A DNA stretch of 54,174 nt from Chara braunii (GCA_003427395.1 BFEA01000025.1:2026676-2080849); one strand, 5' to 3'. Positions 10,400-40,514 are shown, counted from the first letter of the stretch. Notes: a model not told the origin generated them from the letters alone. Numbers and translations are program-made.

Positions 10400-12750
10400 A
10401 GCTGTATTTTGTTTATCTTTAAGTCTAAATACGGCTATAATGATTGTATGTTGTATTTGGAGGGAAAAAGGTAGTAGGCATTGTTCTGCAGTCGCCCTTG
10501 TCAGTGGGGAAGACTTGTCACAGTATTGGCAGAGCGGTAAGAGTTGGCCTTCTTGCTTCAGGTTTGCCTTGGAGACAAAGCAGTCCGGAGCAGGGAGACG
10601 TCCATAGAGTATTTGTCATTGTAGCGCCTTTTGTGATGTAGGAATAAGGTGGGTGTATCTGGGGCTGCAGTCAAAGGAGTGCAAATCCTGAGGTGTGAGA
10701 GAGGAGTCCTTAGTCCACCTTTGTTTGATGATACCATGACTTTCATAGTTTTCATGGATGGTCCTATATCCATCCTTTACGGTACATTGTTAGAGTTTGA
10801 TTTGCATATCCTTCTTCTTGTTCAGTCAGCTTCATTCGTCAGGGTCAAAGGGGAGTTGGTCGATCAGCGTGTTGCTGCAAAAAGCATACCAACCTTTGTT
10901 GTAGTCTCCAACCACTCAATTTCTCATGAGGCCCTGACCCAGGGTATCCTCTTGACCGAGTCCATCCTTCCATTGCTTATTAACTTGGTCCATCTTACTC
11001 CTAGGAAATGTAGGTCATACGCACGGAGCTCACTTCCCTTTGCTGGCATCTTCTTGAAAATTAATCTAAAAATTTTAAATATCGCACCGGGTAAACTGAG
11101 ATTGGAAGTGGCAGGTCTTTGACAATAACCACCCATGTAACCATTCCAAGGGAACAATATTTAGTAGGCTACATCCCGCATATTATTTGTGCAGTGTTTC
11201 AATTGTTCTTCCTTCTTCCAAAACTCTTCTTTGAAATCTTACAAGTCGCCTAAGGTGAAGATCCCCTTATTCACCTATGAAACTCATTGGACTTATTGTG
11301 GAGGGAGAATGGCATCCTCTTTTGGTTGAGGATAATCGGATTGTCGAAAATGATTGTCTCCACACTTTGAGTCACCGTAGTGGTGGCTTTTGTTATGTAG
11401 GGCTCATCCTACGCTAGAGGCGGATAAAGTTTTTTCAAAGCGGCTCAATGTGTGTATAACGTTTGGTCGCTATAGTAGAGTCGCCCTCCCGTCGTATTGG
11501 GTCTTTCCCTACAACGAGCCAAAAATAGTTTGGTAACTATATATTTTCATGCTTCCCTCTTTAGTCATTTGTTAACCTTCCTGTCACTCTTTCACAAATA
11601 GGCTGTGATGGTTGCCCTTATTGTTTGTAGGTACTTGAAACAATGTGATCAATTACCGCTTTGTACTAGGTTGTTTACGGCCAAGGTCCTTCCCACTAGC
11701 GATGTGTGGAACCCTTTCCATTGCGTCATTCTTTTCAGTGTTATGTCCACCCAAAATTCCCCATAATCATGAGGAGGGCCGAGAGAGGTCAGTCTAACAC
11801 CCAACACCCGGATCCCTTTCTCATTTGGTTTGAATCGATATCATTTTAATTCAGTCACCATCCCTCTATTATGGCACCATAGTTAATTGACATATCAGTG
11901 ACTAAAAAAAAAAAAAAATTATAGTATTTGCCAACATTCTGATTGAGTCCTACAACGCTTTCAGTAGGATCGTAAGATCAATAAATAATAAGGTGACGCG
12001 CATAAGGTATCGGGGAATCTCATAAAATGTCACCCTCTGAATTTCTTGATTCGATTTAATGGTTGTTGCTAAGATCTGCATTACTATGACAAAGATAAGT
12101 GGCGTTATAGGGTCCCCTTGTCTCACCGATCTTTGTAGTGAAAACGGGTGTAAGAGGTGCCCATTTACCATAATGTTCGTCATAGTCGATTGATGCAATA
12201 TAGTCACCTCACCCCCAAAGGTTTGTCTGAAATTCATTCTTTGGATATGAGAATCCACGAAGGCCCAATTTATATCATGGTACATTTTTTTTAAGTGCAC
12301 GAAGATGATTACAGTCGCCAGTCTTCTTCAGGTTCGTCGTGTGTATCGGATTGTCTCTTTGACTAAGGTGGTATAACCTTGAATGTTTCGTTTTAGGATA
12401 AGCCTTGTTTGTTATGGGTGGATGAGTTATTTTATATACGGTAGGAATTTGTTAGTCAGTGTTTTTTTCACCATCTTATACGGTATCAGTAGTAGTGTGA
12501 TTTGTTGGTAATTCTTGATTTCATTTAGTTTCCTTCTTTTGTATGTCAGGGTAGCGACACATTGGTTAAGCAGCCTCCCAAATGCTCTTTCCTTTTGGAC
12601 TGTGTGGATATAGTCCATTATGGAGTCACCCGAAAATTCCGAGAAGTGGGCCCATAACTCCTTTGGAAAGGAGTCAAATATCTGGCTTGGATTTGTAATA
12701 CGACATTATGGATCTCTTGCTTTAAGAGAGGGGCCTCAAGTTTCCCTTGT
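10400..12750 (-). mobile_element. Degenerate L1-clade LINE ORF2 (reverse transcriptase) remnant
   Basis: Minus-strand fragments match L1-type RT motifs: KNYQQITLLLIPYKMVKKTLTNKF (12427-12618) resembles NYRPISLL..YK...K.LANRL. KKMYHDINWAFV and NGHLLHPFSLQRSVRQGDPITPLIFVIVM (11950-12300) resemble KAYD.V.W.F and RQGDPLSP.LF. A CQYC Cys motif near 10520 may be the C-terminal zinc motif. Many stops and frameshifts. Confidence 0.8.
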
Positions 12751-15110: not shown

Positions 15111-17260
15111 TTCATATTTTTCAATAAGCAAATCCATAAATTACATTTTGAAGGGGCGATATAACGCACAAACCTCACGGCAGATGTTACTTTCCTTTTG
15201 GAGTGGGTCCTAGCGTGGAGGTTTAAGGAAAGTAAAAAAAATGGGGGTGTGCCAATAATTTTTGGAAAGGGGGGTGGAGTTTCAGATCAAAATTGGGATC
15301 TCACGCATCAGTTTCATGCATGAGTCGAGCTAAGGCGAGATGTAGAAGGGATGAACCTTCTTGGTGCAAAAATCCAGCCCACTAAAAAATGTCAGGTAAT
15401 CTTGTACACTTCATTGTCTACGTCTAAAAAATCATCATGGCTACTGAGCGTCATTATCCCAAACGAAAGGGCAGAGGTATTTATACAAGGTTTCGATTTC
15501 GGGTGGTGACTTGGCTACGTGTCTCGCAAATTTGGCAGTCGTAATCGGACTATCGTAGCCATAAAGTCCTTTCCACTACTTTTGTATCTCCACGAGACAT
15601 ATATTTATACTTTTTTTCTATAGACGTTTGGTACACCTACAATTTGAACACAAGGTGTGAAACCAGTGGGGGTGATGGTGGCTTAAGGGATAACTAGATA
15701 AAGGGTACAAACGGTATTCGCGCCACGCGTTCAAAGCTGAAAAATGAAGAACAATGTGAGTCATCAAGGAATAGGTAAGGGTGATGCATTTGAGTTGTAA
15801 CCTCGTGCACATCTCATTCGCATACATATGTATTTTTCGCGTTACAGGAGAAGTCTATCGTGTACTCATTGACAACACAAGGATAAGGAATGAATCAGAC
15901 CGCCTTATCCATACAAACTGCTTAGAATAAGCGAACGTCTGTATCTTTCACACCTTACAAATACAAAGTTTATGAAAGACACCCAGTTATTTTAATTTAG
16001 TTGATCGATCACAAATATCGTACTTCGAGGCAGAGAACGTTAATGAAGAGTCTAAGACAATCAAATGTTCTTCATAATTTTTAATCAAAGAAAACGATTC
16101 ACACTCATCATGTCCACGAGTCAATATGAAACGAAACTATCAATATTCTCGAGAGCATTCCATAAAAACAGAGAGAAGGTACATAACACCAAGAAGGATA
16201 TTTTCATGCACTTCGATTTTCCATCAAAAGATAAAATAACATACTTTTATTAAATATGCAAAACAACCTAATGTAATTTCAATGCATTAGAGTAGCGAGA
16301 TGGTAGAGAGAAACACTTTCATTGATCTAGTTATCCATCAATTGTTAGTACCCAGAGAAAGGCTTATTGAAAATAAATTATTTAAGTCAGAAGATTTGAG
16401 AGAGGCACATAATTCACATTCGCTCGAAATATACTCAAGTTCAAAGGGGATGTAAACTACTTTGTTCTCAAACTTATAGTACTCTTACCAACACGCACTG
16501 ATCATCTAATGTATATGAGCGAGTGCTGATAATTTGTCATCACGCACTCAGTGATCATCTTAGCGATCGTCACCCTGTCAGTCCACCTACGACACAAATC
16601 TACTCACGTTCTCCATTCCCTCGCATCAACACGTCGATCTCGCGTAATTGCAATCAAACCTTCGATATTTTTTAACCCGCTAAGCACCAAATGCTAGCCA
16701 CTCCGTTTGAGTTGATATACAATGTAAGAGAGAGAGAGAATCACGCTTGCAAGATTTGTAGTTGCACGAATGGGGGAGCACAAATGCATGCAGGGAAAAA
16801 GGGAGAAGGACAGGGAGGGAGTCCATGACAACGCGAAGGGAGGGTTCGTGGACAATAGAACTGCGGTGTGGGGGAGTCGACTACTCTCCACACAGCAAGT
16901 TGATCAAATAAAAAAATTGTGAGGCAGAAGAGGAAGAAGATAATTATATTTGTCAAGTAAAATGTGGAGAAAGAAGAAGAAGGCGCTCAAAAGATAGGGT
17001 GTGAAAAGTGCAAATAAAGATGGCGCACATGGAAGATTGTGAGGAGGCGAAAAGGCGAAAAACACTTGAGCAACGCATCAACGAAAAAACATTTTTGTGC
17101 TTAATTTTTAATTCAAAATTTTAATAGAAATATGGACACACTTAATAAGGCGCGTGAATCATTGAAGAGTTTTGTGGATACAGTATCCAGAGTTATAAAA
17201 CATACCAACTTTGGGGACGCCCATACAAAATTCTTCAACATTCTAAAATGCAAAAATAAG

Positions 17261-17875
17261 AAACATAAAGATAGTATACAACTCGCACTAGACGTCGTCA
17301 TGAAAAAGAGGAGCACAAAAGTCTTGCACCCAAATAACATGGTTCGTCACAGCGAAATGCATATTTCTCACCCCAAAGAAGTGTCGCAGATCAAGGCATA
17401 GTATTGTTATGTTATCATATGCTTGGCGAGCTAATCATAAATGATATCATCGAAGTCGTGTGTGTGTATGTGTGTGTGTCTTTTTTTTTTTAACCACTAG
17501 TAATACCTCCGAGCCTGTTTTTGTCGAGCCTGAATTTCACTACGCTCCAAGTTTTGATGAGCCAAAAATAAGCAACATAAAGATTATATACAACTCGCAC
17601 TAGACATCGTCATGAAAAAAAAGAGCACAAAAGTCTTGCACCCAAGCAACATGGTTCGTCACAGCGAAATGCATATTTCTCACCCCAAAGAAGTGTCGCA
17701 GATCAAGGCATAGTATTGTTGTGTTATCTTATGCTTGGCGAGCTAATCATAAATGATATCATCGAAGTCGTGTGTGTACGTGTGTGTGTCTTTTTTTTTT
17801 TAACCACTAGTAATACCTCCGAGCCTGTTTTTGTCGAGTCTGAATTTCACTACGCTCCAAGTTTTGATGAGCCAA
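17261..17875 (+). repeat. Recent ~310-bp tandem duplication
   Basis: 17261-17565 and ~17573-17875 are nearly identical (ACATAAAGAT...GATGAGCCAA). Confidence 0.9.
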
Positions 17876-20032: not shown

Positions 20033-23000
20033 TGTGAGCCGACAACTACCAGGATGCATAAGTTATAATGATGCCCGCCAAAGAAATAGAGAATTTGTGT
20101 TCGCAACCCTAATGAGAATCCTGCCTAAAGGGAGGAAAAGGAACCTAGGAAAGAACCGAGAAGGAATTTAGCCTGCTTGGTCCTGAGAAAACAAAGGCAG
20201 TATGATGGAGGTCTCCGTTGGGGTCGTCACACTGCTTGTATGAGCTAACCAAGATGAATGACGGGGTACTCGCCGTACGAAGTTTCCCTGCCATTCGTCC
20301 GGCTAAAGTAACAAACTGATAAAATGTTTGTTTGATTGCGGCGTTGGTGACGAGAGGTTGCCGTGCAGTTCTCTTATTACATTACAGGCTAGGCCATCGA
20401 GTAATCCGGTAGGATCGTCAAGCTGCTTATATAAAAATAACTAAGGCGGATGATAGGGTGCTCGTCGTGCGTGCTATCTTTACCATTCGCCTGACTAAAG
20501 TAGCAAGTTGGTGTATTGATTGTTTGACTTTGACATTGGCGGCAGGAAGGTACCGTGCATCTTACCTATTGACCTGCAGGTTACATTAACAAAAGTCAAA
20601 CTAATCCGGTACTTCCGTGAAGTACATTCCTTCAGTTTAACAAAGTCAAACTGATCTGGTACTTCCGTGAAGTACATTCCTTCAGTTTAACGAAGTCAAA
20701 CTGATCCGGTACTTCCGTGAAGTACATTCCTTTAGTTAACGAAATCAAACCGATCCGGTACTTCCGTGAAGTACATTCCTTCAGTCTAACAAAAGTCGAT
20801 TTGATCCGGTACTTCCGTGAAGTACGTTCCTTCAGTCTAACAAAAGTTGATTTGATCCGGTACTCCCGTGGGGTACACTTTTTTCAAAAGTAATAATAAC
20901 TGATTGATCCGGTACTCCCGTGGGGTGCGCTTCTTCAACTTGACAACGGCCAATTGATCCGGACTCCCGCGGGGTACACTTCTTCAACTTAACAAAAGCC
21001 AATTAATCCAGTGTTCTCGTAGGGTACTCGTCTTCAAAGGCTAACAAAGGCAAAAGATAGCAGGAGGCTTCCGTGAAGCTCTCCTATCACTAATCGAACC
21101 AGACTGGGGAGGGATTCGAGTACTCCCGGGTGAGTGTACGAACTCCTAAGTCCGGGTCGATCTGTCCGACTTCCCGTGGGAGTCACCATGCCTTTTGCTC
21201 ACTTGCGACGCATAGGCCAGATATGTGAACTGTCAGGGCAACTCAATTGAGAGTTGTTTTTGATCTCCTATGCATTGAACTGGTGGTAGGATAGCTCCCG
21301 GGTGGGTTATCCTAACACTTGTTTGATTTGGAGGTCAACTAACGAAAGAAAAAAGTAAGGCAATTATGTTTGAACAAGTGAAAGGATACTCCCGGGTGAG
21401 TAACCTTACGACTTGTTCAAATATGACTAATGGACGATACAAATAAGTACCAAAGCAGGACATGGGAGGCTTCCGTGAGGTCATCCTATTGCTTGCTTGA
21501 GCCTATCTTAGCGAGTCTAATAAAACACTCCAACTAGAGGAGGGTCTGGTGTTTGTCTGAATCCGCTAACACAACCTTAGTTTGTCTGACTTTGAGATAG
21601 TAGTAGGGTGGCTCCCGTAGGGTCATACTGTTTCGCTTTTGAGGGAAAGATTGAGCTTTGATCAAGGAGTAATAGGAGGCTTCCATGAAGAGCACCTATT
21701 ACTAACTTTAATTTTGTATTGACACCTGAATCTAGAAAGTTATCTGAATATTGAGTCAAATGTTGAGACGACTCAACATAGACCTCCTAACTATCTGCTA
21801 ACTTATAAAAGGATACTCTCGGGTGAGTTATCCTGTCACTTGCCCTAGATTGCAGAAATTGCTTGATTGCGTGAGAACTGCATGAATTTTGAAGAGTGAC
21901 TGAGTGCTTTCGTTGGGGCGACTCGACTACTCTTCTGACTAACAGATTGCTTGGAATTGATCAAGTACTCGAGGATTCCTGGGTGAATCGACCTACTACT
22001 TGCGTATGCCAGGACAAGAAAAAGAGAAAGGAAAAAGGAGTTTTCCATCGGGAGCGACTCCAAAGGTTCCTTAAAAGGAACGTAAGAGAAGGCTAATACC
22101 GCGGGGAAAAGGAACTAAAGAAAGAAGACACCCCGTTTAGCCACAGTTCATTGGAGAAACCGCCACTGATTTGAGTCGATCTCGGCCAAGACTACCGCAT
22201 AAAGCACAAAAGGGTGTGTTTATCCGCAAGAGGGAGAATGCAAGGACTGAAAGGAGGGGAAATATGAGTTTCCCTAAAAGACAACTTAGGACATAGGCAA
22301 GAAACTCCTTGAAATAAAAGGAGAAGGAGTGACAGACGACTCAGGGTAGATAGAAACTAGAGGTTAGACTTTGGGATGTTGATCCCAAAGCTCTCAAACC
22401 AGATCTAAGAGTTTGACCCTTTGATATCAATATGTGGGAAGTCGAGTGAGAATGTTGAATCCTTGTTGACCTGTGTGTGTGCATGTCTTTGCTTTGGTCT
22501 ACTGCAATCGAAGGAGAAGTCCTACATAAAGGACTCGATTTTTTGTTATCTCTCGATAACAGGTCGGTCGTTGCCGATTCAACTTTTCCTCCTTTGACTT
22601 GACACCTACATCTAAAGTCAAACCTTGTGGTCAGTAAAACTGTCACCTGTGGTCATTGCCTAAATGGTCATGGTCACTCTCAAGGGTCCTTTGAATCAGT
22701 GTGAGGGGGTTGGGCTTGCATCTCAGGAAAGATAGAGCTGTCATGCATGGTTTGGGGAGTGAGGGACAATGTCAATGGTTGATGGTTGACACCGTTAGTG
22801 CATGGCATGTGAACTGTCTTTGCATTATGTTGTGCATGTCTGTCTTGTGCATGGTTTGGATTGGACTGGAATTGACATCGTGAAGAGTTTTGAACGCTCA
22901 ACACTTGTGAAAGTGGGAAGGGTTCCTTGTGGTAATACCTCGATATTCATTAACAGTCTTATATAACTCCTATGATATCTGATGATCAGTCATACGTTGA

Positions 23001-23471
23001 GTAGAGTAGAATATCCTTTGGTAGTGACAAAGTTTTGTTTTGATGTTTTGAACATAGTGGTCAGAAGGAGAATGTGTCTTTGGAACAGAAGCGGGAATAG
23101 ACGACCGTCTTAAAGTTCGACCTGAATATCTAACGGGTCAGTCCTAGGCGTCTTACTGCGCGTACCCCATATTATGCTACAACGATCTAGCAAACGCCCT
23201 CGGCCGACCTACCTCTACTCAGGCATGTAAAAGCCTTCGCACGTGGGCCGGTAGCTCAGCAGGGATACGGCTACCTGAGGGTGGTGACAGCCCCTCGGGT
23301 AGAGGTAAGTTGTACCTCGCGACATCCCGACCTGTCGCAGGGCGTCGTGAGAGGTATAGCACGCGCGCACGGTTGGAGTGGTGACAAGTTGATTCTTCGA
23401 AAATAAATCCTGCGTGACACGACCATGAGGTTCAGCGCTCCAAGCGGGGTGCGGGACCGCCGCTCGCAACA
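20033..23471 (+). mobile_element. Element A: TG...CA-bounded ~3.4-kb non-coding element (candidate large solo LTR) carrying a hairpin array
   Basis: Starts TGTGAGCCG and ends ...CCGCTCGCAACA. TATATAAAA at 20428. Segments ~22545-22632 and ~23172-23460 are reverse-complement homologues of element B segments ~25195-25292 and ~23860-24175. No TSD, PBS or PPT recognised. Confidence 0.55.
20585..22000 (+). repeat. Hairpin array A (~18 units, loop CCGTG/CCGGGT)
   Basis: GTACTT-CCGTG-AAGTAC at 20609, 20659, 20709, 20758 and 20809 (~50-bp period), then progressively divergent units out to ~21990 that keep the loop and stem complementarity. Confidence 0.85.
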
Positions 23472-23849
23472 ACGCTTTTCCTCTCTCTATTTCTCTGTAT
23501 ACTGCCTTTCCTCAAAAACTGAACTCTCTATTCGCTTCGCCCAGGGCCAGAATCCCGAAATCATTTCTTCCCTCGCTTGATTCCACTAAGGATCGAGCGA
23601 GTTGTGTATCCTTCGCAGCGCTCTACCTAGTTTTGTTGTCATCGCCAAACTCTCCCTCTCTCCGTGTGCACTTCAACTTGGTCCAAAAATGAGCCCTGAT
23701 TCAACCTTCTTCAGAGTCTAGCGCAGTCTGGTTCATCAACACGATCTCACATACTGCCAATTGCCCGATAGTCCGACTGACCTTCAACCCTCATATCCGA
23801 CCCGACGACGGCTTGCTCGGTCGTACTTTTGCGACCTCCATCGTAGCGT

Positions 23850-26800
23850 TGTCGGGCGCATCGGTCCGACACCGCGCGCGGCAGCGCAGGACCCTCTCGG
23901 CCGCGTCACGCAAGAGTTGGATCAACATCGTCACGAACACACAAATGGAGCTTCCTTAGGCTGCTCCGGCCGAGTGCACCAGCCCTACCTCTCGCGAGCC
24001 CCTACGACAGGATAGGGCCTAAGCGAGGCACAACTTACCTCCACCTTACGGGAGTTGTCACCTCCCTTTGGTGGGCGTATCCCCGCCGAGCTACCAGTCC
24101 ACAGTACGAAAGCTACTCGGTTGCAATCGCAGAGGTGGACCAACCGAAGGCGTTTCTCTTTCGCTGTAGCATAGGGGGTACTCGCAGTAATACGCCTATC
24201 GGACCTGCACGGGAACCGGCATCTTGGGGGGCTGAGGTCCCAAGCGAGACTCGTCGTCGGTCGACTAGGACGCATCTCACACACCATGCGCACACCACTC
24301 TACGAACGCGAAAATAAAACACACACACACATATACACGAAACGACACAGCACAAACAATGCGACAACGCTCCTAGCCCCTTAGTAGCCGTCCCATAACT
24401 TCCCGACGCGTGAATCGGATAGGCGTCGCGCGGGAGACTTAGTATAGAGCCGCGCGAACGCAGGGCCAACTCATATCGACTCGCGATGCAAGCGCACGCA
24501 AGCAGTCGCAATGATGGCGTACCGTGTAGTACCCATACTCATGCGGTCCTCGTTTATCTTGAGGGTCGCTTTCGACACTCAAGTGTCGGCTGACACGCGC
24601 CTTGAGGATTAATCTCTCGACGCTGGACAACCGCCATGCGTGGTTGAAGACCACACCTTCTCCTTGTGCAGAGGGGTTGAGTAGACAGCTTTAAGCTGTC
24701 GTGGCGGTCGAACATCAAGGGGTTTGACTTTGACGGCTGCCACGGACTATAACGTCCAACTATAAAAATCTCTAAAAAGTGAAGGGTGAAAAGGGATCTC
24801 CCTTTCTCTCTCGAGCCATAATCTGGCTAACCCTTGCGCACGATCATAATCAGTTGAGCGCATGCCCAAGGCACATATAAATATATACACAAGGCTTATT
24901 TATATAGGACGATCACTTCTCACAGTCACAGTGGGACTCCTCTCAACCATATACACATGTAATCGCAGGCAGTCACATCCAGAGTTCGAACCACAACCAT
25001 ACATGCAGTCACATCAAAGATCAACAAAAGTCCACGCACTACACGGAGTCAACTTCAACCATTCTCTAGGCTAATACCCCTTGCTTTAGCCATACAAACC
25101 TTACTCTTGTGCAACTCCCCAAAATAATTACTCAGTACTTTTGTTAAATGGCCATTCAATAAAGTCCGGGTGAAAACACAATGAAACAATTCAAACCACA
25201 CGGTTAAAGCCTTCAGGTTGAGTGACAAGAGAGGATTGAAGTTGAATCGCAAACCGACGAATCGGCTACCAACCTGTTATCAGTGATAACAGAGGATGAT
25301 CCTCGTAGGATTAGGCTGAAACTAGTCCAAGTCCTGAATTAAAACAGTCAAACGGACCTGTAGCACATGACAGGCCAATCCCAAAGCTAGATTCATAAGT
25401 TCATGGAGAATAATCCTCATATCACGATCCCACTGAAGGATCCTAATTAACTAAGCCTAAGTCTACCCTCAAGCGGTGCCCAAAGCAAAGGTAGACTAAT
25501 GGCAGAATCTCCCCTATTCAGGGTGGATCGCCAGAATCGCCACCTGTCAAAATATAATTTATCTCCTCTAAATTAGAAAAATTTCGGCAGCGCTTCCCGT
25601 AGGAAAAGTGTCTTTTCAAAATTTATATCAGTCCGAATATGAAACCAAAAATAGTCTTTGACTTTCCAAAGTCAAATTTTTGTCTAACTCCATGAATTAG
25701 CAAAACTTTGGGCAGCTTTCCCTTTAGAAAAGGAGACTTTCCAGATTTTTACTAAGTCATATACGAACCTTATACAAGTTGAACTTTGAAAAGTCAGAAA
25801 TTTGATTAACTCCTTGGATTTGCAGAAATTTCGGCAGCGCTTCCCATAAGGAAAGTAGCTTACCAAGATTTATACAAAACCAAGTATAAAACAAGATCTA
25901 AGAAAATGTGAGAACTGATCTAAGCAAAAAAACTGAGCCCAGAAATGCAGAAATTGAGCTAACCCCTATCGCTCTAGCACGTGGCAAGCCTCTAAAGCAA
26001 CTACCTGTCAACTAAAACTGAGACCAAGTAGTAACCTCACTCAGCCACATGCAAGCCAAACCACAAAGGTAAGTACTCTCGTCACCCCAAGTTAATTTAG
26101 CAAACAATAATTCATAGTCTTTCAATTATTTAACCCTTTACTCCCAGCTTACATAGGGCATTGGGATTGGTCATTCATCTTAGAAACAATGTCATCCCTC
26201 TGCCTTAATTTTACACGAACAGGCTGCACAACTACTCTTCTCTTCTTTTTGGCACATGACTAAGCCATTCATCTTAGAAACCAAGCTTAGTCGCCCTGAA
26301 CTGTTTAAATAGCCAAGTTATATATACCTTTCAGCACCTTAGTCTTCAAAGACAGGGCGTAGGGCTGAGCCATTCATCTTAGAAACAATGCCCAACCTGC
26401 CCAGGTTACCTTTAGTTATAACTCTTGATTATACGCTCTTCACTTGTGATAGGGCTATAGTCAGGTCATTCATCTTAGAAACAATGCCTGTCTAGCCTTG
26501 TTCGTATATAAGTACATATATATATCACAGTATAGATAATCATATTCCTTGGTTCTCATTATGGTCCTGATGCCTCAGACTTATACCATTCATCTTAGAA
26601 ACAATGTCTAGTCCTCTGGCCCTGAATCCTCCCTCGAAATAAAACAATCAAGGAGAGATGAGTCATTCATCTTAGAAACAGTGCTCAGCTCCCTCTTTTT
26701 CAGCACACAAAAAAAGAAGAGTCCCCTGGGTCTGACCCAGAGACTGTTCAGAAACCACCCAAGTAAACAGCGGCCAGACCATTCATCTTAGAAACAATGT

Positions 26801-28515
26801 CTGGCCCTCAAAAGTCAAGCAAGCAATACCCCTCAGAAATAAGTAGCCAGGCCATTCATCTTAGAAACAATGTCTGGCACAATTAGAGAAACACAACAAC
26901 CAAGCCATTCATCTTAGAAACGATGCTTGGTCCTTCAGAAAACAAAACAAAACATAACAGTTAGGCCATTGATTTTAAAAACAATGGCTGACTCTATAAG
27001 ACCCGTTCAATCGCAGGCAAAACCGCCTTCCTGCCAACCTTTCCCCTGATGCAACCCCTTGTGACAATCTGCTTTCAGACAAACAAGAAACTGAAACTCC
27101 CTTTTATACAAACATTCATTTACTTAGCCTGATTTGTGTTCTAAAAGTCAATCCAAAGTCAAAGTAGGGTTGCATGCAATACAGTCAACCAATACACAGG
27201 GACGTGTATAGATAAGGGTTATACTGGGTTTAATAAGGGAAACCAATAGTTACCTCTGAGTTCCCTGTCTCCAGAACTCCTCCTGAGTTCCGGCAGAGCT
27301 CCCGCAATCGGTGGGGCAACCTCCCACAGAGGCCTTGGCGCGGATTACGGGTTGCAATCCCGCCTGCCGCCTTCCTCTCAGAACCAATAGACCAGACTTA
27401 GAGGAAGAAGGGCAGAGGGAGAAATTTTGAGTCTCTCAGATCCAAGAAGGGTGCTCTCAGACTCGCAGGACAGGGCCTCGATGTCTTCGCTCGCCTAAGG
27501 GCCCCGCAATGGTGGCTAAACGGTCAACAATTTTGTCAACCCATGGTGTAATAGCGCTCTGACAGTCCTCTAAGTCGCAGCAACACCCCTTTTCCTCCTT
27601 GTAGAGTCTGATTACTTCCCCAAGTTATGGCACTACACCTACTAATCAGCAGGCCGCCGTTCTCCCAGAGCGCGCAACACTTCAAATAGGATCCGTCCCT
27701 TATGGAGGGCACAACAAACCTTACGGAAAAAGCAACGCAAGGCAACTATGCACACCAGCAAGGCACCGTGGAGCGCGACAACAACCATGGTAACCCTGCC
27801 AGGCGGATGAACCTCCTGCAGCAGTCCACAGCAGCTAGCCAATAAGGCCGTAGCGATGGTCAACAACCATCAGCGGCAGCAGCCTGCTGAAGCAGCCAAT
27901 ACGAGCGGTAGTTGAACGGCGGTGACGCCGCCACAAGTTCAATCACAACGGCGAGCCCTCCTCTCCTGAGTTCGCAGGCTAATCTCGTTGCTAACCGCCT
28001 TTTTGCCTCCGAACGATGGTCAAAGCAGCGCAGCAGCCCACAGGTAAGGCTTCAATCACATCCCCAACTTCCTGTTGTTCTATGCATCGGGGTAAGCGGC
28101 ACTCCGGCCAACCAGAAACATGCCCATAGCTCCGTTGCCAGCCTCCCGTTGTTTCGACTGTTGGCCAATCTCCCAGCCCTGGGGGCTATCCCCTCATTGC
28201 TCTCGTGGCCAACGGTGACTCTTCAGCCCCACAGCCTGGCTTCTCCTTTGAGGTAGGTACTCATGTTTTACGGCCCTTCCACCACCTCCCCGTTCTTTTT
28301 CCCTTGCTACTTTTTTTTCACTCCTCCACAGTCCCGGAGCTATGACCTTAGGTAGAATCCGACGTCACCGACTCAGAAAACACGCTTCCCTCCCGTATTC
28401 TCTCTTACTTATAGTCTCCTTCTCCCTCTCTCTATACGATCTCTAGTGGTCAAACACCCGGTCTTACTCTCGGCCAGGTTCAACCCGAAGTGAACCCCGG
28501 AGTAAAGCGCTCACA
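23850..28515 (-). mobile_element. Element B: TG...CA-bounded ~4.7-kb non-coding element (candidate large solo LTR) carrying a hairpin array
   Basis: The minus strand starts TGTGAGCGC (28515) and ends GCGCCCGACA (23850), forming short imperfect terminal inverted repeats. Minus-strand TATAAAA at 27102-27108. Collinear and inverted relative to element A. Segment 23850-25685 is repeated at 33663-35560. Confidence 0.6.
26155..26995. repeat. Hairpin array B (10 units of CATTCATCTTAGAAACAATG with unique self-complementary flanks)
   Basis: Core starts at 26172, 26266, 26371, 26467, 26587, 26664, 26780, 26853, 26906 and 26967 (last one degenerate). Intervening sequences are non-identical. Confidence 0.92.
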
Positions 28516-31094
28516 CGGAGTAACCGAGGGTGATGAAAAGGCACTATCCTGAACGGCTGCGTGAGGACGACGGGCAACCCTTCTTCCGTGCCCATAAAAG
28601 AAAGGGGAAAACGTGCAAAACTAAAAATTCAGAAAAGGAAAAAAACAATAAAGAGGCATCCAAGAGTGAATCTTCCGCAAAAAAAAAAACCGGAAGAGTT
28701 CATCGTTGCGCTGCCTTTCTCTGTGCGCAGCCCCTACACACCCCGACACCAAGTTTGCTACCCTCCTTCGAACCCGCTTTCACCAATCGAATTAGCAGGA
28801 CCGAATGAAACTTTAACGCGAAACCGGCCAGGTGCGTGCCCCCTTTTCCCTGCGCCTAGCCCCCTCTCCGCCACGTGCATCTGACACTCTTTTTTGTCCA
28901 GATTCACTTCCTATTCTAATTCCAAATCTACTAACTTTCTTTCAAATCCACCTCCACTACTCACTTCGCCCTGCCTATAAACCCATATCTACTATCCTTC
29001 CCCGACTGGTCCCGTCCAGAATCAACTAACACCTTTGACTTTCTCACTCCTTCTTCCCTGCTTCCTACCATAGCTCCGCGCACTAACCTTTCGTCCTTAC
29101 TCCTCACCTACTGATCTACTGCTAAAACTAACCCCGGATTAAGTGTCGCCCGGGCCTAAAACCTTGGACTAACATTTTATCCCACCCGAATCCATCGAGA
29201 ATCGGGCAAGTTATGCTCGTTTCTCTCTTCTTCTCCAACCTCGTTCACGCCATCTCCGCGCAGTCCTTCCTCCTTCTATCTTCTATTCTACTAACCCTTC
29301 ACTCAAGCTTACTACATAGTTGGAATCGCTATGTCAAGAAACCCTTACCCAGCAGTCTTCCCCGCCCGAGCCCAACGAAAGACGAGCGAGTTGCGGGTTC
29401 TCCCTCCCGCCATATCTCCATACCCCGCGCTGCTTCGTTCTCACTAACCTCTAATCCCGCTAACCCATCGCCGAATCTAACCACGGATTCGGATTCGCTG
29501 GCCCGGAAAACCCCTATAACCACCCTCCATTCGTCCGACTTCGTGAAGGATGGAGCGAATTGTCTATTTGTGGTTGCGCCCGACTCCCCGCTCCGCCATC
29601 TCCAGTCGCGTATGTACCTGGCGCTCAGACTCGTCTGGGTTCATCCCTTCTATGTGTGCTCACCGACTGCTCTGGCCGCTCCGCCCCTCCTTCCGCTGCG
29701 TCTGCCCCGTTGCCTTAGCACCCCCGTATTCTCTTACCTCCTTTCTCTTCCACCCCCAACCACCTCCGTCTCTCCCTACTCCGAATGCACCCGGAGTGCT
29801 AACCCGTCCGGGTTCACTCCACTCTTATCCCCCACTACTACTAGCTCAGCACTCGGTAGTAGCCCCTCCCCCACAGCTCTCTGGCATCGACTGTCCGGCC
29901 TGCTGCTTGGTTGCCCCGGCCCGCTGCTGTAGATCAACCGCCGTCACTCAGCGTCACCCGATCAGTCTCGCTGCCCTGTCGCTCTCCCGCTAGTACTCAT
30001 TGCCTGCTGCCTGTTGCCTCCGCTGCTCGTTTTCCCCGCCCCAACACCCATCACTTAGCTGTCTTCGGCAATCAAGTGCACCCGATACGCACCCGTGCCC
30101 AGGTTCCCCTTACCTCCACTGCTGCCTCTCCACCTCATCTCCCCGTCGTCTGTTTCCACTGCCCCTTTTCTCCCGGTTACTCAGCGCCCGACAACAGCGG
30201 GCTCATCAGCCGTACGGGCTGTTTGGCAGCGCCTACTTCCCTACGCGGTATTTTCGGAGGAGGCTAGTTGCTGAATGATCCGGTTAGCTACTTCAAGTTG
30301 CCCCTGCACCTCTGCCCGACAGGCAGCTCGCGGGCCAGCCCCGCCATGGACCTCCACTGGCGTCCTATATGTATGGTCCGGCCGCGCAGGGGCCTTGCTA
30401 ATCTTCTATGTATCGCTCCGAATTTTTACAGGCGCCCCAAGGAACTGGCTCACGCGCACGTTGGCTTCGTCGGCCCGCATCTTAAAGGGGTGGGGCCAAG
30501 GACCCTCACCGATCATGAGGAAGTGCGAACGGGTTCGCGCACTCGAGGTCCTCGACTTCCGCGGCGGCCGCTAAGTCTGGCATTGCGTCCATACCAACGG
30601 GGCGGCGGGACAACGGCAAATAATAAGAAGAAGACAATAACTTATTAAAAGTTTTTAATCGTCGGAACATGTCAACTGAAAGAAAAGGAAACGCTAGCAC
30701 CGTTCTGACGCCGCCGTCGGCAGAAGACCAAGCGGAATAGCCGTCGGGCCTCCGATTCCTCAGTCCCTTCGCACTGCCTTGATAATTTCGCTCGTCGTCA
30801 CTTGATCTCGATCCCTGAACGCCTCGGATGAAAATCCAACGCCGTAACCAATACTGCCAGGCCCGAGTCTGGGCCTAGCTCTGGCGGACGCCTTAATAAA
30901 CGGACACTGCGCGGCGCGCCAGGCTACCGAAACGCCTTCAAAAGTCACTTTGTTGTCGACGTCGTCCTCCGCACGTACGCACAGGTCACAGGCGAGCACA
31001 TTCATCAACGAGACGTAATTCTTTTAATCCCTATTTAATCAGACGGAAAAAAATTTGGCCGGCGGTGACACCGACTCTCCAATCATCAACAAAT

Positions 31095-32537
31095 AAAAGG
31101 ATCACGCGCGCCTCAAATCCGCGCGCCCACACACTCTCTATTCTAGTTAACCATCCAATCAACGTAAATCACGGACGCAGCCGCGCCTAGCGCGATATAC
31201 TTAAGCTTTGAACCAACTATTTTCTGTCATTTGCAAAAACCAGGGAGGATACCCTTGTAAGGGTATTCGCGCCGACAGCGCTCTTTGCCACTCCTGACCA
31301 CTTGACGAATTAGACATTATACTGGGTTGAGGTCCGATGCATTCGGTAGGATGGTGGCTACGGTAACCGATATCCATCACACGGTTCGTAGCAAGGCCCC
31401 CGTGGGGACATCCAGCCCCGAAACCGGAGGGCGTTGAGCCCCCATTCTGTTCACCTCAGTCGTGGCCACCCTGACCCTCCGACGAGCGGGAGGGCGTGGG
31501 CCAGCTACATAATTCCCTGCATGGGCCTACCCGATGTCGATCCCTGTGCAGGTCTTGGTGGTACCAGTAAATATTCAGCGCAAACCTTTGAAGGCGGAGG
31601 TTGGGAACAACTCTACGTGCGAGCACAAGGCTGAGTACAGCTACAAACTTCTCCACCGTGCCCTAGGCCGTTCTGCCTGGGTATAGCCCTCCGTTGTCGG
31701 GTCTTAGTGGCAAGCAGACACCCAAAACTTTCTCAGCGGCTCGCGGTCGGTCAACCTAAAAGCTTCAACAAAATGAAAATAGTAATCATTAAATATATAC
31801 AAAAAAATCATCAAACAAAAATTTGGAGGTTGTACCGCACGGCAAGGAAAATGAGAACAAAGAGAATACTAATATCGCCCTGGCCCTGTTGATCAACCCC
31901 GTGGTCTTGAAAACCAGGGGGATAGCCTCGTCAGGCCCTCTCCCCGTCAGTTTCCCTTTTACTGCTCCGAGGCTCCTGCGTCGTCATCCGATGGTCTCGA
32001 TCCCTAAACCTCCCTATCGAAAGTCCGACACCGTAACCTATAGTGCTAGACCCAAACTGGTTCTAGTATAGGCAATAGCTTATATAAATGGATACCACGT
32101 GGTGCGCCAGTCTACTGAAATGTCCCAAAGCCACGTCTCGGTCTACCAACTAATCCCACACCCACTGACCCTTTCGCGTCCACCGCGTGGCTATACAGAA
32201 CAGTGTCTTCGTCGACGTCGTCCTTTGTACGTATGCACTTGTCATGGTCAAATACATCAATCAGAAATAAAACATTTTTTAATTCTACTACTTTGGTCAG
32301 AAATAAAACTTTGCCGGCAACTACGCGCGCTTTTTCAATCACCAATAAGAAAAGAGATCACGCGCGCCTTAAGTCTGCACGCCCACATACTCTTTACTCT
32401 AGTCAACCATCCAGTCAGCCTAAACGATCAAACTCAACCGCAACTCGCGTGGTGTACTCATACCTTAAACTAAACGTTTTTTTCTGTCATCTGCAAAAAC
32501 CAGGGCGGATACTCGTGTAAGGGTATTCGCACCGACA
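31095..32537 (+). repeat. Direct repeat pair (~31095-31277 and ~32350-32537) ending in a hairpin plus CCGACA
   Basis: Both copies read GATCACGCGCGCCT...TTTTCTGTCAT.TGCAAAAACCAGGG.GGATAC....GTAAGGGTATTCGC.CCGACA. Confidence 0.75.
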
Positions 32538-33662
32538 GCGTTTCCCGCGTCCACGCGGTAGACAATTTATTTGAGGGACGCGAGTTAGGGTCTTGCTCCA
32601 CCACCTCCACAAATGCGTTTTGGTAAGTGGGGTAGTCGCGCCAGCGCTCACCATGGCCAATGTGTCAAAAATAAGTTTTCCTTTGGTGGTGACTTGACTG
32701 TGGTGAGAAATCGCTACAATCCATTTCCCCCCCTCATTGCAGTGCTTCTTCTCAGTCACCCACCGTAAGTGGTAACTCACTGTTTTCGTGGGTCCCGGCC
32801 ATCCCTTCCCTTGTTTTGTAGCACTCGCCCATATGGTGAGTGGTCAAGTGCGGTAAGTGGTTGCCTCCCGGCCAGCACCGATGGTGGGTGGTCAAGTGTG
32901 GCGAGTGGTGGAGCGACCCCCGCCTGCTGGTGAGAGAAGTCGCCTGGTGAGTACTCACTACGAGAAATCGAGTTTGGTGACTGGTGAAGTGAGACCCGTA
33001 GTCTGGACTTCTCTAACTCTTTGGTTATATGGTAGAAACACATGACATACTAGTAAATTGTCTACCTTGTGGGCATGTGGAACGCAAAAAGAATAATAAA
33101 AAAGACTTAAAAATAATCGTCGCGGCGATTCGGTGCATTTTTTCTTTTTGTGCCTCTTGCAAATCGCAGGACTGGACCTTCTGGTAACACCTTGCGTATG
33201 GGACTTCGGACAACGCCTCCCCTTCTTATTTTTATTTATTTTTGGGGTTCGCTTCCACCTGATTACCAGTCGTTCCTTTTTCCAAAAGTCCCGGTTTTAG
33301 AAGAGCTAGTTATAGGTCCTCCGCAATATCATCACGGACCAGTCCTTCATACAATTTTAACCCCTAAGAACCCACTTGTGCGTTAATCACCCGTCGTCGA
33401 AAATATGCCACATTGACACAAGCGTTGAAGCCCACTATACTGCAACCTTAGGAGTACGAACAGATAAGATGCTCGAGTTCAATCGAACGGATATAGTTCG
33501 CAGCCGGTCAAGGGTGCGTTTTATACCACCGTGTCATTTTTTTATCGTTTGGTTGTACCGGTCGCCCGTTCGGGTCCAAATGGTAGCTGGAAGGATGATG
33601 AATTTGTGAGGGAGGGAGGGGGATTAATGGGGAACGGACAATTGTTGCTTGCGGAGGAACGG

Positions 33663-35993
33663 TATCGAGCGCATCGGTCCGGCACCGCACAAAACGGGGA
33701 GGACCCTCCCGACCACGTCACATAGGATTCGGTCTGATCCTCATCGAGATATATACATGGAGCTTCCGCAAACCGCTCCGCCCGAGTGCGCCGGCCATAC
33801 CTCTCGCGAGCCCCTACGACAGGATAGGGCCTACGCGAGGCACGACTTACCTCCACCTTACGGGAGTTGTCACCTCCCTTTAGTGGGCGTATTTTTTTCG
33901 AGCTACCAGTCCACAATACGAAAGCTAATCAATTTTAATCGCACCAGTCGAGGGCGTTTCTCGTTCGCTGTAGCATAGGGGGTACGCACAATTTTACGCC
34001 TCTATCGGACCCGCACGCGAACCGGCGCCTTGGGGGGCTGAGGTCCCAAGCGCGACTCGTCATTGATTGACTAGGACGAATCCCACACACCACGCGTACA
34101 CCACTCTAAAGACATAAAAATTAGAACACGCACGTGCACGCATATATACAGAACGACACAAAACAAACAACGCGACAACACTCCTAGTCCCTTAGTAGTC
34201 ATCCCATAACTCTTCGATGCGGAAATCGGATAAGCGATGCGCGTGAGACTTAGTATAAAACCGAGCGGACGCAGAGCCTTCCCATATCGACTAGCAATGT
34301 ATGAATGTGCAAGCAGTCGTGATGATGGTGTACTATGTAGTGTCCATAATCAAGCGGTCCCTCGTGGGTTTGAGTACCGCTTATGACACTCAAGTGTCAA
34401 ACTCGAAATATCGTGAGGGTCTACCCCTTCACGATATTGCACGGCTGAAGGAACAGTCGTACGGTCTCCACGGCACCTCCGACTTTTAGGCTGAGTGTCC
34501 CGGTGGGCAGGGTAAATAGGCTTTGCGAGGGAGGTGATCCCTTCCATGCAGAGTCTAGGACATGGGATGTCTTGGACAAGGACCTCGAATCCAGGCCCAG
34601 GACTAACGTCCGACTAAGAAATCTCTTTAAGAAGCATACAACAAATAAAGAGGGTTTTTCTCCCTTTCGCAATCTCGACCCCAATTAAACCCTTAAGCGT
34701 GGGTCCCTCAGGCCACGCGAACACCGAAACATAGGTATATACATGTACATACGTAAAAGGGGAATAAGTATGTGACGATTACTTCTCACAATCACAGTGA
34801 GACTCCTTACAACCATATATATGTACGTGATCGTAGACAATCAAATCCAAAGTCCGAACCACAAAACATATCTGCAATCACATCAAAGAGTCAACCAGAA
34901 GTCCACACATTACATGGAGTCAAATTGAACCATTCTCTATACTCATATTCATCGCCCTAGCCATGCAAGCCCTAGCCTCTGTCCAATCTTTCATAATTAA
35001 ATACTCAGTACCTTTGTTAAATGACCATTCAATAAAAGTCCGGGTGAAAACCTTAATAAAATAATAAAACCCACCAGGGCTAAAAGCTTTTAGGTTGAGT
35101 ATTGAGGATGAATTGGAGTTAAGTCGTAGACCGACGAATCGGCAACCAATCTATTATCAGTGATAACAGAAGATGATCCTCATGGGATCAAGCATAATCT
35201 ATTTAAAATCTTGAATCAAACGATCAAGAGGACATGTAACACAGGACATGACAATCCCCAAACTAAATCTGTAAGTCCATTGAGAATAATCTCCATATCA
35301 CAATCTCACTCAAGGTTCTCCTGCAAACTAAGTCTAAGCCTACCTCTAAGCCAGTATCCAACGCAATGTAGACCTATGGCAGCATCTCCCCTATTCAGGG
35401 TGGATTGTCAGAACAGCCACCTGTCAAAATACATGTTAACTTCCTTAAACTATGAAAATTTAGGCAACACTTCCCATAGAAAAAATGTCTTCTCATAATT
35501 TATACTAACTCAAAGATAAAAACAAAAACAATCTTTAAATTTGGAAAGTCAAATTTTGTCTATGCCTCTATCGGACCTGCACGCAAACCGGCGCCTCAGG
35601 GGGATGAGGTCTCAAACTCGACTCGTCGTCGGTCGACTAGGACGAATCCCACACACCACGCGTACACCCTATGCTACAACGAACGAGAAACGCCCTCGGC
35701 TGGTCCACCTCTGCGATTGCAACTGATTAACTTTGGTACTATGGACTGGTAGCTCGGCGGGGATACGCCCACCGAAGGGAGGTGACAACTCCCGTAAGGT
35801 GGAGGCAAGTCGTGCCTCGCGTAGGCCCTATCCTGTCGTAGGGGCTCACGAGAGGTATGGCTGGCACACTCGGCCGGAGCGGCTTGTGGAAGCTCCATGT
35901 ATATATCGCGATGAGGATCAGACCGACTCCTGCGTAACGAGGCCGGGAGGGTCCCGCCCCATTTTGTGCGGTGCCGGACCGATGCGCTCAATA
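33663..35993 (-). mobile_element. Element C: truncated and rearranged copy of the element B family
   Basis: 33663-35560 aligns in direct orientation with 23850-25685. 35561-35668 repeats ~33997-34100. 35669-35993 is an inverted copy of the terminal ~320 bp. Confidence 0.7.
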
Positions 35994-36274
35994 ACGGTAG
36001 CTGACCATTGAGGCCACGGTTGTTGAGTTTAAGATTTTGAAATCGAAACGGCGTGGATCCAATTTTTCCAAATAGAAGGACACTTGGAATAAACCGCATA
36101 TGGGTTCTATTTGAATACAAAACATATATTTTTTATTCGGATTTCGATAAGAAAAAACTAGTATATTCAAATAGAACATTACCTTTTTTTTTTTTTTTTA
36201 GGTTAGCACATGCCCTTGTGCTCCCTGCCACTAACATGTTGCATGTTGCAGGGCTCTCTCTCTCTCTCTCACAG

Positions 36275-39480: not shown

Positions 39481-39846
39481 GGCTGGCTGGCTGGCTCTGC
39501 CAAGCGCAGTCAAGTTGAGCAGAAACAGATGAAGAGTCCGATCAGCATCAGCAGCAGTAGCAGAGGTAGCAAGCTTTGGCAGAGCCAGCAGCGAGCAAGA
39601 AGGAGCAAGCAGGGAGCAAGAAGAAGCAAGCAGGGAGCAAGCAGAAGCAAGAAGTGAGAAACAGAAGCAGACTGTGAGGAAAGCGAGGGGGCCAAGGAGG
39701 GGGGCGGAAGGAAAAGGGGGGAATAAGGGGATGCGTCGGCGGATACGCAGGCGACTTATCCGCCGCAATCAAGGTGTGCTGCCGTAAGCGTGAAAATCTC
39801 GTCCACGTCATCGTCGTCCGCGTGTGTGTGAGAGAGAACACACACA

Positions 39847-40504
<658 letters not shown>

Positions 40505-40514
40505 GTAAGTCCCT

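Follow-up and report, generated by a model that had tools for sequence, protein, structure and literature searches.

Arrays of short motifs inside long terminal repeats (LTRs) are known from the Sireviruses (Ty1/copia, SIRE), whose LTRs carry high-copy, family-specific symmetric motifs that form hairpins and vary in number; in the accessible text of the two papers these motifs are palindromes with a CGG-CCG core, placed upstream of a conserved TATA (PMC2829016; PMC4728375). The arrays analysed here, from the charophyte Chara braunii, differ from them in having a fixed loop and varying stems, in lying downstream of a splice donor that is used, and in belonging to a gypsy-type element, and they show neither the CGG-CCG core nor the Sirevirus arrangement with respect to TATA. 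A similar pattern is described for VANDAL elements, in which short, family-specific motifs of one orientation grow by tandem repetition, occur also in introns and accompany an accessory open reading frame (ORF). However, the VANDALs are DNA transposons of the Mutator-like kind, and the motifs recognised by VANC are double-stranded, according to the accessible text, whereas the extra ORF of the family described below is without a Pfam match; the word 'hairpin' is used 0 times in the main text of that paper (PMC5735166).

By analogy, retroviral Psi is also close, being a structured 5' RNA that separates unspliced from spliced transcripts for Gag (PMC8096270; PMC5035971; PMC12789967), and structures requiring sequence past the major donor are reported to guide Gag to unspliced RNA (PMC8096270). 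As those sources present it, Psi is made up of a handful of hairpins that differ from one another and for the most part follow the primer-binding site (PBS), whereas here 10-21 similar predicted hairpins lie inside the LTR. Among plant elements, the soybean Athila-lineage element Diaspora resembles this family in its tRNA-Asp PBS, in the length of its LTR and leader and in having donors within the LTR and acceptors where gag begins. These splice sites are predictions only, and the 2005 paper knew of no intron upstream of gag, whereas the LTR donor described here has read support. The accessible part of that paper mentions no hairpin array (PMC1142308). Our search, largely of the open-access literature, found no description of such an LTR hairpin-array arrangement, which does not establish its absence from print.

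We hypothesise that the arrays are putative multivalent sites, specific to each subfamily, by which unspliced genomic RNA is marked for packaging or export, a reading which we hold tentatively and at somewhat less than an even chance. A more specific form of it, which we consider rather doubtful, is a swappable RNA address label in a charophyte gypsy element: an intron would begin about 275 nt into a 3.5-kb LTR and contain 10-20 hairpins, the loop of which would be a putative subfamily code read by Gag or by a dedicated 236-aa accessory protein that belongs to no known family, which would restrict export and packaging to unspliced RNA of the matching subfamily.

Identity and boundaries of the LTRs

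The window analysed is a stretch of 54,174 nucleotides (GCA_003427395.1, BFEA01000025.1:2026676-2080849), and the two elements within it, A and B, are LTRs from a very high-copy retrotransposon of Ty3/gypsy type, each of a different subfamily. LTR A (20033-23471, plus strand; TGTGAG..GCAACA) represents a diverged subfamily, and its terminal block is 65% identical to the PBS-adjoining LTR end of a relative on contig L001. LTR B (23850-27529, minus strand; 3680 bp, TGTTGAC...CCGACA) is of the very high-copy subfamily, is 87% identical to the same LTR end and is probably a 3' LTR; a 15-nt putative polypurine tract, AAGGAGGAAAAGGGG, followed by TGTTG, is found at 27586-27600 on the minus strand, 56 bp upstream of its family-typical start. 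Both A and B thus have terminal TG...CA ends, and the L001 end reads CTCGACA.

The initial annotation had placed the end of B at 28515, with a TGTGAGC terminus in common with A. Aligned from there, A 20033-20292 and B 28515-28220 score at chance (293/1000 shuffles) and the summed DNA depth drops from 23,621 to 66 across 27552, so that the common terminus is a coincidence; the true end is 27529, where the 5' ends of A and B align, with diverse loose DNA ends at 27516. Contigs joining 27516 to 27585 number one each in X1 and X2.

Significant homology between A and B was found by shuffle tests in four blocks. The U5-end blocks (A 23145-23471, plus strand; B 23850-24198, minus strand) score 230 against a null maximum of 42 (0/200 shuffles; BLAST 67%, 4e-37), the TGTTATC..GATAACA hairpin blocks (A 22520-22632, plus; B 25195-25310, minus) 60 against 43 (0/200), and the stretch between these two blocks 68 against 48 (0/200). 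The fourth block is the 5' exon, A 20033-20292 with B 27529-27235 (0/1000, with boundaries picked post hoc, after seeing the data). In these four blocks the collinearity proposed in the initial annotation is upheld, but it is not confirmed in the stretch from TATA to GGCAGGAAGG, which shows no significant likeness (25/200; 258/1000 shuffles); a shared 10-mer arises in 171 of 2000 shuffles. The two arrays are unalignable to each other, 190 of 200 shuffles scoring equally high. In a consensus fold of five terminal blocks, covariation contributes just -0.36 kcal/mol, both sides having changed in 10 of 81 pairs; a hammerhead-like reading of this block was rejected by eye, there being no CUGANGA core.

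A third copy, C (33663-35993, minus strand), overlooked in the initial annotation, retains the 3'-most 1.9 kb of a B-type LTR (73%). In front of this lie a second U5-end block in inverted orientation (35660-35993) and a direct duplication of 108 bp. The copy has neither exon 1 nor the first array, and is flanked on both sides by ACGG, a 4-bp target duplication. No target-site duplication was found for A (5' flank GCCA, 3' flank ACGC), which also has no PBS behind it and no polypurine tract before it, nor for B, where ACGC stands 3' of the U5-end block. The U5-side flanks at the three independent sites (ACGC, ACGC, ACGG) fit NCGN; the 5' flanks of A and B do not.

Elsewhere in the window, a Pfam scan of six chosen ORFs matched HDAC alone, and tblastn of 161 proteins gave one match, at 12.4-12.6 kb. 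No Rfam family reached its gathering score over the whole window (five chance-level matches at 22400-25500) and no tRNA gene was found in it. The terminal-block pattern occurs at one locus in metagenome contigs and at none in viral or prokaryote contigs.

Relatives and lineage

Contig L001 runs from the terminal block through a PBS and an extra ORF to gag, the closest matches being Chara braunii proteins. Directly behind the LTR end CTCGACA come GG and then, at 6390, the PBS TGGCGCCGTTGCCGGGGA, which we take to match tRNA-Asp. A 2-kb leader follows, with an acceptor-like site immediately 5' of the gag ATG. Just the final 247 bp of the LTR are present on L001, which leaves no array connected with a gag or an extra ORF.

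The gag ORF has a CCHC knuckle, and PF03732 was matched in 2 of 4 relatives at E 0.002-0.003, under the curated cut-off. A gag profile search gave 178 matches, and of the 18 scanned 11 have pol domains; distant relatives carry pol behind gag (gag-RH-INT in P0021, gag-PR-RH-INT in P0023, RT-RH in some), while no pol was found in L001, no gag match in the window and no gag locus in viral contigs. The gag model (pLDDT 43) gave weak Foldseek rows that include Arc, PEG10 and Ty3 capsids, none at E<=0.001. The extra ORF is open at equal length in another copy (236 aa, 78%), and its model (pLDDT 39) reached a best Z of 6.4, with generic helical repeats; a likeness to MobL relaxases (Atlas scores 0.86-0.87) lay under the tool's own reliability line, and none of these model and likeness results is counted as evidence. 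The inverted ends of copy C prompted a comparison with Penelope-like and DIRS elements, as far as these are described in the accessible text of PMC8557442, and this identity is ruled out by the TGG-type PBS and gag of L001; no Rfam ribozyme was found.

In the accessible text of a survey of land-plant elements, TatII, Athila, Ogre and Phygy resemble this family in LTRs of 3.4-3.7 kb and in repeat arrays (PMC6317226). There, a 5' extra ORF is given for 23% of TatII and 21% of Ogre, a PBS read as tRNA-Asp for 72% of Athila and 37% of TatII, and a 4-bp NCGN target for 100% of Phygy, 49% of TatII having a 4-bp target (PMC6317226). The NCGN target of Phygy recurs in the U5-side flanks here, but Phygy is compact, with a tRNA-Trp PBS and no extra ORF, whereas L001 differs in its PBS and has an extra ORF as well as a leader of 2 kb. 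Athila has a 5-bp duplication in 95%, whereas the sole duplication here, in the atypical copy C, is of 4 bp. As far as that text goes, no listed non-chromovirus lineage combines all traits of this family (PMC6317226), and the combination of an NCGN target, a tRNA-Asp-type PBS and a 5' extra ORF is listed for no land-plant lineage.

Hairpin arrays

Array A (20586-22000, plus strand) contains 21 loop motifs of the types YTCC-GTG-RRG and CTCCCGGGTGAG, found at 20612-21976 by a regular-expression search over 20400-22200 with at most one mismatch. The first eight lie within a young 50-bp tandem repeat (20586-21037), and the 3' part consists of diverged units with long, unit-specific stems. When arms were swapped between units, their own arms gave the better folding energy (0/20000 for all 21 units; 4/20000 for the 13 diverged units), as they did when Watson-Crick pairs alone were counted (2/20000 for 11 diverged units, the other two of the 13, at 21014 and 21867, being left out).

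Array B (26150-27000, minus strand) has ten units at 26981-26186, spaced 53-120 bp apart, with the core CATTGTTTCTAAGATGAATG and, in nine of the ten, the exact 15-mer TTTCTAAGATGAATG. Its stems are short and of modest stability, with a 12-nt loop, and own arms again exceed swapped arms over all ten units (335/20000 by energy; 12/20000 by Watson-Crick pairs alone). The claim of the initial annotation that the arrays are different, each with a fixed loop and variable stems that stay paired, is therefore borne out in both A and B. At 26584, 26681 and 26922, 98-99.8% of the X1 contig depth has a base consistent with the core or the pair, which marks B as a decayed copy. Unit number and order differ among family copies, with joints that skip whole units.

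A and C have one copy each of a second hairpin module, TTTYC-N3-4-GGGRAG, at 22041 and 35483 respectively, and B has three (25854, ~25733, 25607). In A and B the module lies further downstream than the array, and it resembles the loop motif of array A. In B it forms three units of ~125 bp with TTTYC-N3-4-GGGAAG hairpins (25546-25892, minus strand), to which the single unit of A, TTTTCC-ATC-GGGAG (22037-22060, plus strand), is the positional counterpart; aligned alone, this region of A and B is not significantly alike (154/200). The module was overlooked in the initial annotation. A loop weight matrix from A has a 15.4-bit site in the terminal blocks of B and C, at chance level for the window.

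Neither array shows a sense-strand folding bias. Mean z for sense and antisense is -1.92 and -1.82 in A and -1.17 and -1.83 in B, where the antisense folds slightly better (Wilcoxon p=0.049), and the excess of G-U over A-C is not significant in A (20:5, p=0.086) or in B (4:8). It therefore stays plausible, if on balance unlikely, that these are DNA-level motif arrays of a Sirevirus or VANC kind, that is, double-stranded cis-elements for a host transcription factor or a VANC-like element protein (the extra ORF being a candidate), forming an internal promoter or enhancer after a very short U3, with stems as a by-product of palindrome expansion. Such an explanation draws on the dense, same-orientation, tandemly growing and partly intronic motifs of VANC targets (PMC5735166) and the family-specific palindrome arrays of Sirevirus LTRs (PMC2829016; PMC4728375), as accessible in those papers, and on three features of the locus: both cores contain TTC-N3-GA, 14 of the 19 TTTGACT motifs in the window fall within these LTRs (copies in the A repeat not being independent), and reads extend to within ~30 nt of the LTR 5' end, leaving scant room for an upstream promoter. 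A duplex motif, however, needs no unit-specific complementarity of 10-25 bp, and both arrays have a significant preference for own-arm pairs.

Alternatively, the arrays may be (nearly) neutral, arising by slippage or template switching in reverse transcription, with fold-back repair keeping the arms paired and recent homogenisation keeping the loop constant. The plain young repeat of A, the varying unit number among copies and the mostly Watson-Crick stems without strand bias agree with this, as does the frequency of tandem arrays in large non-chromovirus LTR elements, as stated in the accessible text of PMC6317226. We nevertheless regard it as improbable, for the 20-nt core of B is 0.93 identical between units against 0.37 and 0.45 for the arms, with unalignable spacers; fold-back repair would leave the loop unprotected, and a single design has been retained at this slot by two subfamilies.

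Transcripts and the splice donor

In X5 and X7, both of them stranded poly(A) runs, transcripts of the family span 27500-27254 and are spliced at 27254, which together with loose ends defines an exon 1 in LTR B (27254-27529, minus strand) with an AG|GT donor (GT 27253-27252). The reads stop at this donor and jump to unrelated exons, so that the TATA-like motif of B (27102-27108, minus strand; 145 nt into the intron) and array B are intronic, which would confine the array to unspliced RNA. Loose RNA ends at the donor lead to several unrelated sequences, three of four not beginning with GT, whereas DNA loose ends go on with GT. Stranded sense depth in X7 is 27-147 in exon 1 against 0-2.6 over TATA and array, the latter ~17-fold under the prediction from DNA representation and equally low further along the LTR. 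Exon 1 is also the most widely shared part of the family (DNA depth 170,000-340,000 at 27261-27454 against ~5,000 past the donor), and since family-wide conservation drops at the donor, the slot behind it is subfamily-variable.

The spliced reads derive from other members of the family, for the most part 85-95% identical, and could represent LTR-host chimeras. None of the four downstream exons matches the L001 gag acceptor or the window, bar one 12-nt match at chance level. The read data list no sharp transcription start. LTR A has almost no RNA reads, and its exon-1 homologue (20033-20274, plus strand), with GT 20275-20276 aligned to the B donor, is predicted to be spliced likewise; its TATA-like motif (20428-20436, plus strand) lies within the putative intron, and a promoter role for it is unsupported.

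The donor upstream of TATA was overlooked in the initial annotation, which had likened the arrays to HIV TAR, as 5' transcript hairpins just after TATA. With the donor upstream of TATA and near-zero sense reads over TATA and array, this placement is not supported; from the broader proposal of family-specific, multivalent recognition, the distinct arrays with unit-specific stems are retained and the TAR-like leader is not. It could still be argued that the TATA at 20430 and 27108 drives genomic RNA, with the array as its leader and the exon-1 reads as U3 exonised in host transcripts. TATAAAA precedes GGCAGGAAGG in the same order ahead of both arrays, a U3 of ~400-450 bp would be ordinary, and the copies are probably mostly silent, so that genuine genomic RNA may be scarce enough to escape notice. 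We think this very unlikely, given that the TATA region is among the family's least shared parts, with conservation stopping exactly at the donor, and that sense reads past TATA are almost absent. The B TATA and array lie ~400 nt behind the 5'-most reads, and in about half of the contig depth the A-run of this motif is one base shorter. Little chance, finally, is given to hairpins that act in single-stranded minus-strand cDNA while an unusually long R-U5 of ~3.4 kb is reverse-transcribed, or as hairpin-RNA or siRNA sources or decoys, which the slightly better antisense folding of B, the excess of antisense-type over sense-type reads over B in X6 and the siRNA hotspots at Sirevirus palindromes (accessible text of PMC4728375) would favour, since the B stems are short with a 12-nt loop and the both-strand X6 reads may include DNA.

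Proposed mechanism and significance

Under the preferred reading, that the arrays mark unspliced genomic RNA, sense transcription would start at or near the LTR 5' end; spliced RNA would lose the array and full-length genomic RNA retain it. Many copies of Gag/nucleocapsid, or of the 236-aa extra-ORF protein, would bind the loops of the unspliced RNA and pick it for packaging or nuclear export, thereby favouring their own subfamily. Tandem duplication would enlarge the array, as the 50-bp repeat of A and the gain and loss of units among B copies suggest, and the stems would drift with selection acting on pairing alone. The slot could pass to a new loop motif, and the motif of A may stem from the second module common to A, B and C.

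How plant and algal LTR retrotransposons pick out their own genomic RNA among thousands of defective relatives is largely an open question. In the element described here, reads support a splice donor that lies within a giant LTR, ahead of gag, and gives rise to many chimeric transcripts. The combination of a fixed loop, free stems and a putative code for each subfamily makes a swap of loops or arrays a direct test of protein specificity. If the arrays are instead DNA motifs, they would be a gypsy parallel to Sirevirus or VANC arrays. If the address label is real, it would amount to a retrotransposon equivalent of Rev/RRE combined with Psi, evolving through tandem amplification and motif replacement.

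Element identity and LTR boundaries

The conserved block that ends A (20033-23471, + strand) and B (minus strand) was found in one contig of a metagenome collection, L001 (87% identity to B and 65% to A), where its last bases are CTCGACA. Next come GG and a primer binding site (PBS) of 18 nt that begins TGG and that we take to be of tRNA-Asp type. Behind the PBS lie a leader of about 1.1 kb, a 246-codon extra ORF (L001 5317-4580, minus strand; 236 aa from the first Met) and a gag that has a CCHC knuckle but is interrupted by stops and lacks pol, with sequences resembling a branch point and an acceptor (CTAAC...TTCGACAG/GTGATG) immediately 5′ of the gag ATG. Because the block in L001 leads into PBS, extra ORF and gag, it is a U5 end and A and B are LTRs, which bears out the orientation of the initial annotation.

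A gag profile from four relatives matched 178 proteins, with pol domains in 11 of the 18 scanned, two of these in the order gag-(PR)-RH-INT. The named database matches to proteins of the L001 relative were all Chara braunii gene models, which makes Chara the probable host, on the evidence of the element and not of any host gene. Seven other gene models carry the extra ORF at 67-83% identity, and in another copy its frame stays open over 236 aa; its protein matched no Pfam family and its predicted fold is of low confidence. In P0010-P0014 it is joined to a different gag-like sequence, and in the Chara gene model P0006 the element's gag is fused to a kinase. Another repeat, downstream of gag in L001 (788-1478), recurs in the window at 30955-31280 and 31910-32540 (62-85% identity).

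DNA contigs place the 5′ end of B at 27529, with a summed depth of 23,621 in 27455-27551 against 66 in the adjoining bin and diverse loose ends at 27516; the start first annotated, 28515, gave no significant alignment to the 5′ end of A. With B starting at 27529 the first 260-295 bp align significantly (0/1000), as do the terminal block, the GATAACA block and the stretch between both (each 0/200 shuffles). For the arrays, the stretch behind them and the TATA-GGCAGGAAGG stretch, shuffle tests gave no significant alignment. Exact-match pieces have a depth of 8-22, which is not equal to copy number, and the family is therefore very abundant. A purine tract 56 bp upstream of B suggests that B may be a 3′ LTR belonging to an internal type of low copy number.

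Copy C and target sites

The third copy, C (33663-35993, minus strand), is 73% identical to B across 1.9 kb. Two U5 ends, inverted relative to each other, and a 4-bp duplication, ACGG, give it the look of a copy that inserted as one unit, MITE-like; in a contig from read run X8, 33658 is connected to 36010 through 26 other letters, much as an empty site within a related repeat would look. The tails of A and B face each other across 378 bp (23472-23849), each LTR without a matching 5′ duplication, and the pair may be two insertions brought together by a rearrangement. No target duplication was found in the flanks examined for A or B. The U5-side flanks are ACGC (23472-23475), ACGC (23846-23849) and, on both sides of C, ACGG (33659-33662 and 35994-35997), all NCGN, a preference listed in the consulted portion of PMC6317226 (supplement file 3) only for moss Phygy elements.

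A splice donor in front of the array

Over 27256-27809, reads from the stranded poly(A) (oligo-dT) runs X5 and X7 come overwhelmingly from one strand (14.5 vs 0.35 and 26.7 vs 0.14, respectively), and finer X7 bins read 26.9, 59.4 and 146.8 across 27551-27261, dropping to 6.9 in the bin that holds the donor and to 0-2.6 across TATA and array. An AG/GT at 27254 on the B strand is a used splice donor, because RNA loose ends at 27259-27261 run on into four or more unrelated sequences, of which three lack an initial GT, while DNA loose ends there proceed with GT. Array RNA is about 17-fold under-represented relative to DNA, as is the widely shared bin 26000-26096, which fits an intron through the remaining LTR. 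Family-wide DNA conservation falls about 60-fold at the donor, and the slot behind it therefore differs between subfamilies; contig joints that skip entire array units reflect varying unit numbers among family copies. The initial annotation is thus confirmed in part and its interpretation supported in part: the array itself stands, but its setting is behind a splice donor instead of just behind a TATA box taken as promoter.

The spliced reads derive from other family copies, mostly <95% identical to B, and their downstream exons match neither the gag acceptor of L001 nor the window. A is nearly uncovered by RNA reads, and a sharp transcription start site was not found in the listed read data. 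The LTR first exon, joined in poly(A) RNA to several different downstream exons, possibly marks LTR-driven host transcripts. Reads of run X6 over LTR B (23932-27255) fall on both strands, the antisense type being two to three times commoner in most bins.

Hairpin arrays

By motif search, array A has 21 loop motifs (20612-21976), units 1-8 forming a 50-bp tandem repeat, and array B has 10 (26981-26186), nine with an exact 15-mer. That the stems vary yet stay paired, as first described, was confirmed by comparing each unit's own arms with swapped arms: for folding energy 0/20000 in A (21 units; 4/20000 for the 13 diverged units) and 335/20000 in B, and for Watson-Crick-only alignment against other units' arms 2/20000 in A (11 of the 13 diverged units, with 21014 and 21867 excluded) and 12/20000 in B. 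Identity between units of array B is 0.93 in the 20-nt core and 0.37 and 0.45 in the arms. Mean folding z is -1.9 in A and -1.2 in B, against -0.2 to -0.4 in neighbouring tiles; no sense-strand folding advantage was found in either array (antisense z -1.8 for both), and the ratio of G-U to A-C is 20:5 for A (p=0.086 vs swapped controls) and 4:8 for B. The design, unit-specific stems around a constant loop, is real and looks to be under selection. Behind the array comes a second hairpin module, with a single copy each in A and C and three copies in B; its loop is similar to A's loop motif, which may derive from it.

Other features of the window

The window is judged eukaryotic because it holds a histone deacetylase exon (39794-40516, + strand; PF00850, E 4e-31), with a 125-bp (AG)n run in front of it, and is rich in microsatellites. 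A 2.5-kb fold-back region (4660-7521), 65% self-complementary and made of GC-rich 21-mers, includes a 17-bp near-palindromic repeat (4946-5049). A reverse transcriptase remnant of LINE appearance lies at 11950-12630 (minus strand; ORF; tblastn E 2e-6) and a 313-bp head-to-tail duplication (95.6% identity) at 17251-17875. Of the 19 W-box-like TTTGACT motifs in the window, 14 fall inside the 9.4 kb of LTRs A, B and C.

Discussion

We found no description of such an LTR hairpin array in the literature, subscription papers and Chara genome supplements lying outside the search. Sirevirus LTRs also have family-specific, hairpin-forming repeated motifs, but these are palindromes upstream of a conserved TATA (excerpts of PMC2829016, PMC4728375). 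Long LTRs also occur in large non-chromovirus elements, together with extra ORFs and arrays of tandem repeats (excerpts of PMC6317226), TatII, Athila and Phygy being the closest lineages on features, and Diaspora has predicted donors in the LTR and acceptors at gag (excerpts of PMC1142308).

Starting with the intronic array itself, we infer every step. We tentatively favour RNA sites, since an intronic array, present on full-length and absent from spliced RNA, parallels the way in which retroviral Gag gives preference to unspliced RNA (excerpts of PMC8096270, PMC5035971); that the loops form a subfamily code on unspliced RNA is possible, if doubtful. A duplex DNA motif array is rather unlikely; VANC targets, which are duplex motifs, likewise grow by tandem repeats, introns included (excerpts of PMC5735166), but here unit arms match their own partners. 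Neutral amplification of hairpin units, to which the tandem units and varying unit numbers could belong, is distinctly unlikely. The TATA-driven, TAR-like reading of the initial annotation is improbable; roles in cDNA or small RNA are equally so.

On the RNA-site reading, a hairpin row just inside the intron would be retained on full-length RNA and removed from spliced RNA. Such multivalent, subfamily-specific sites might then serve packaging or export of unspliced RNA, with Gag or the extra-ORF protein as putative reader, a proposal to which we give somewhat less than an even chance.
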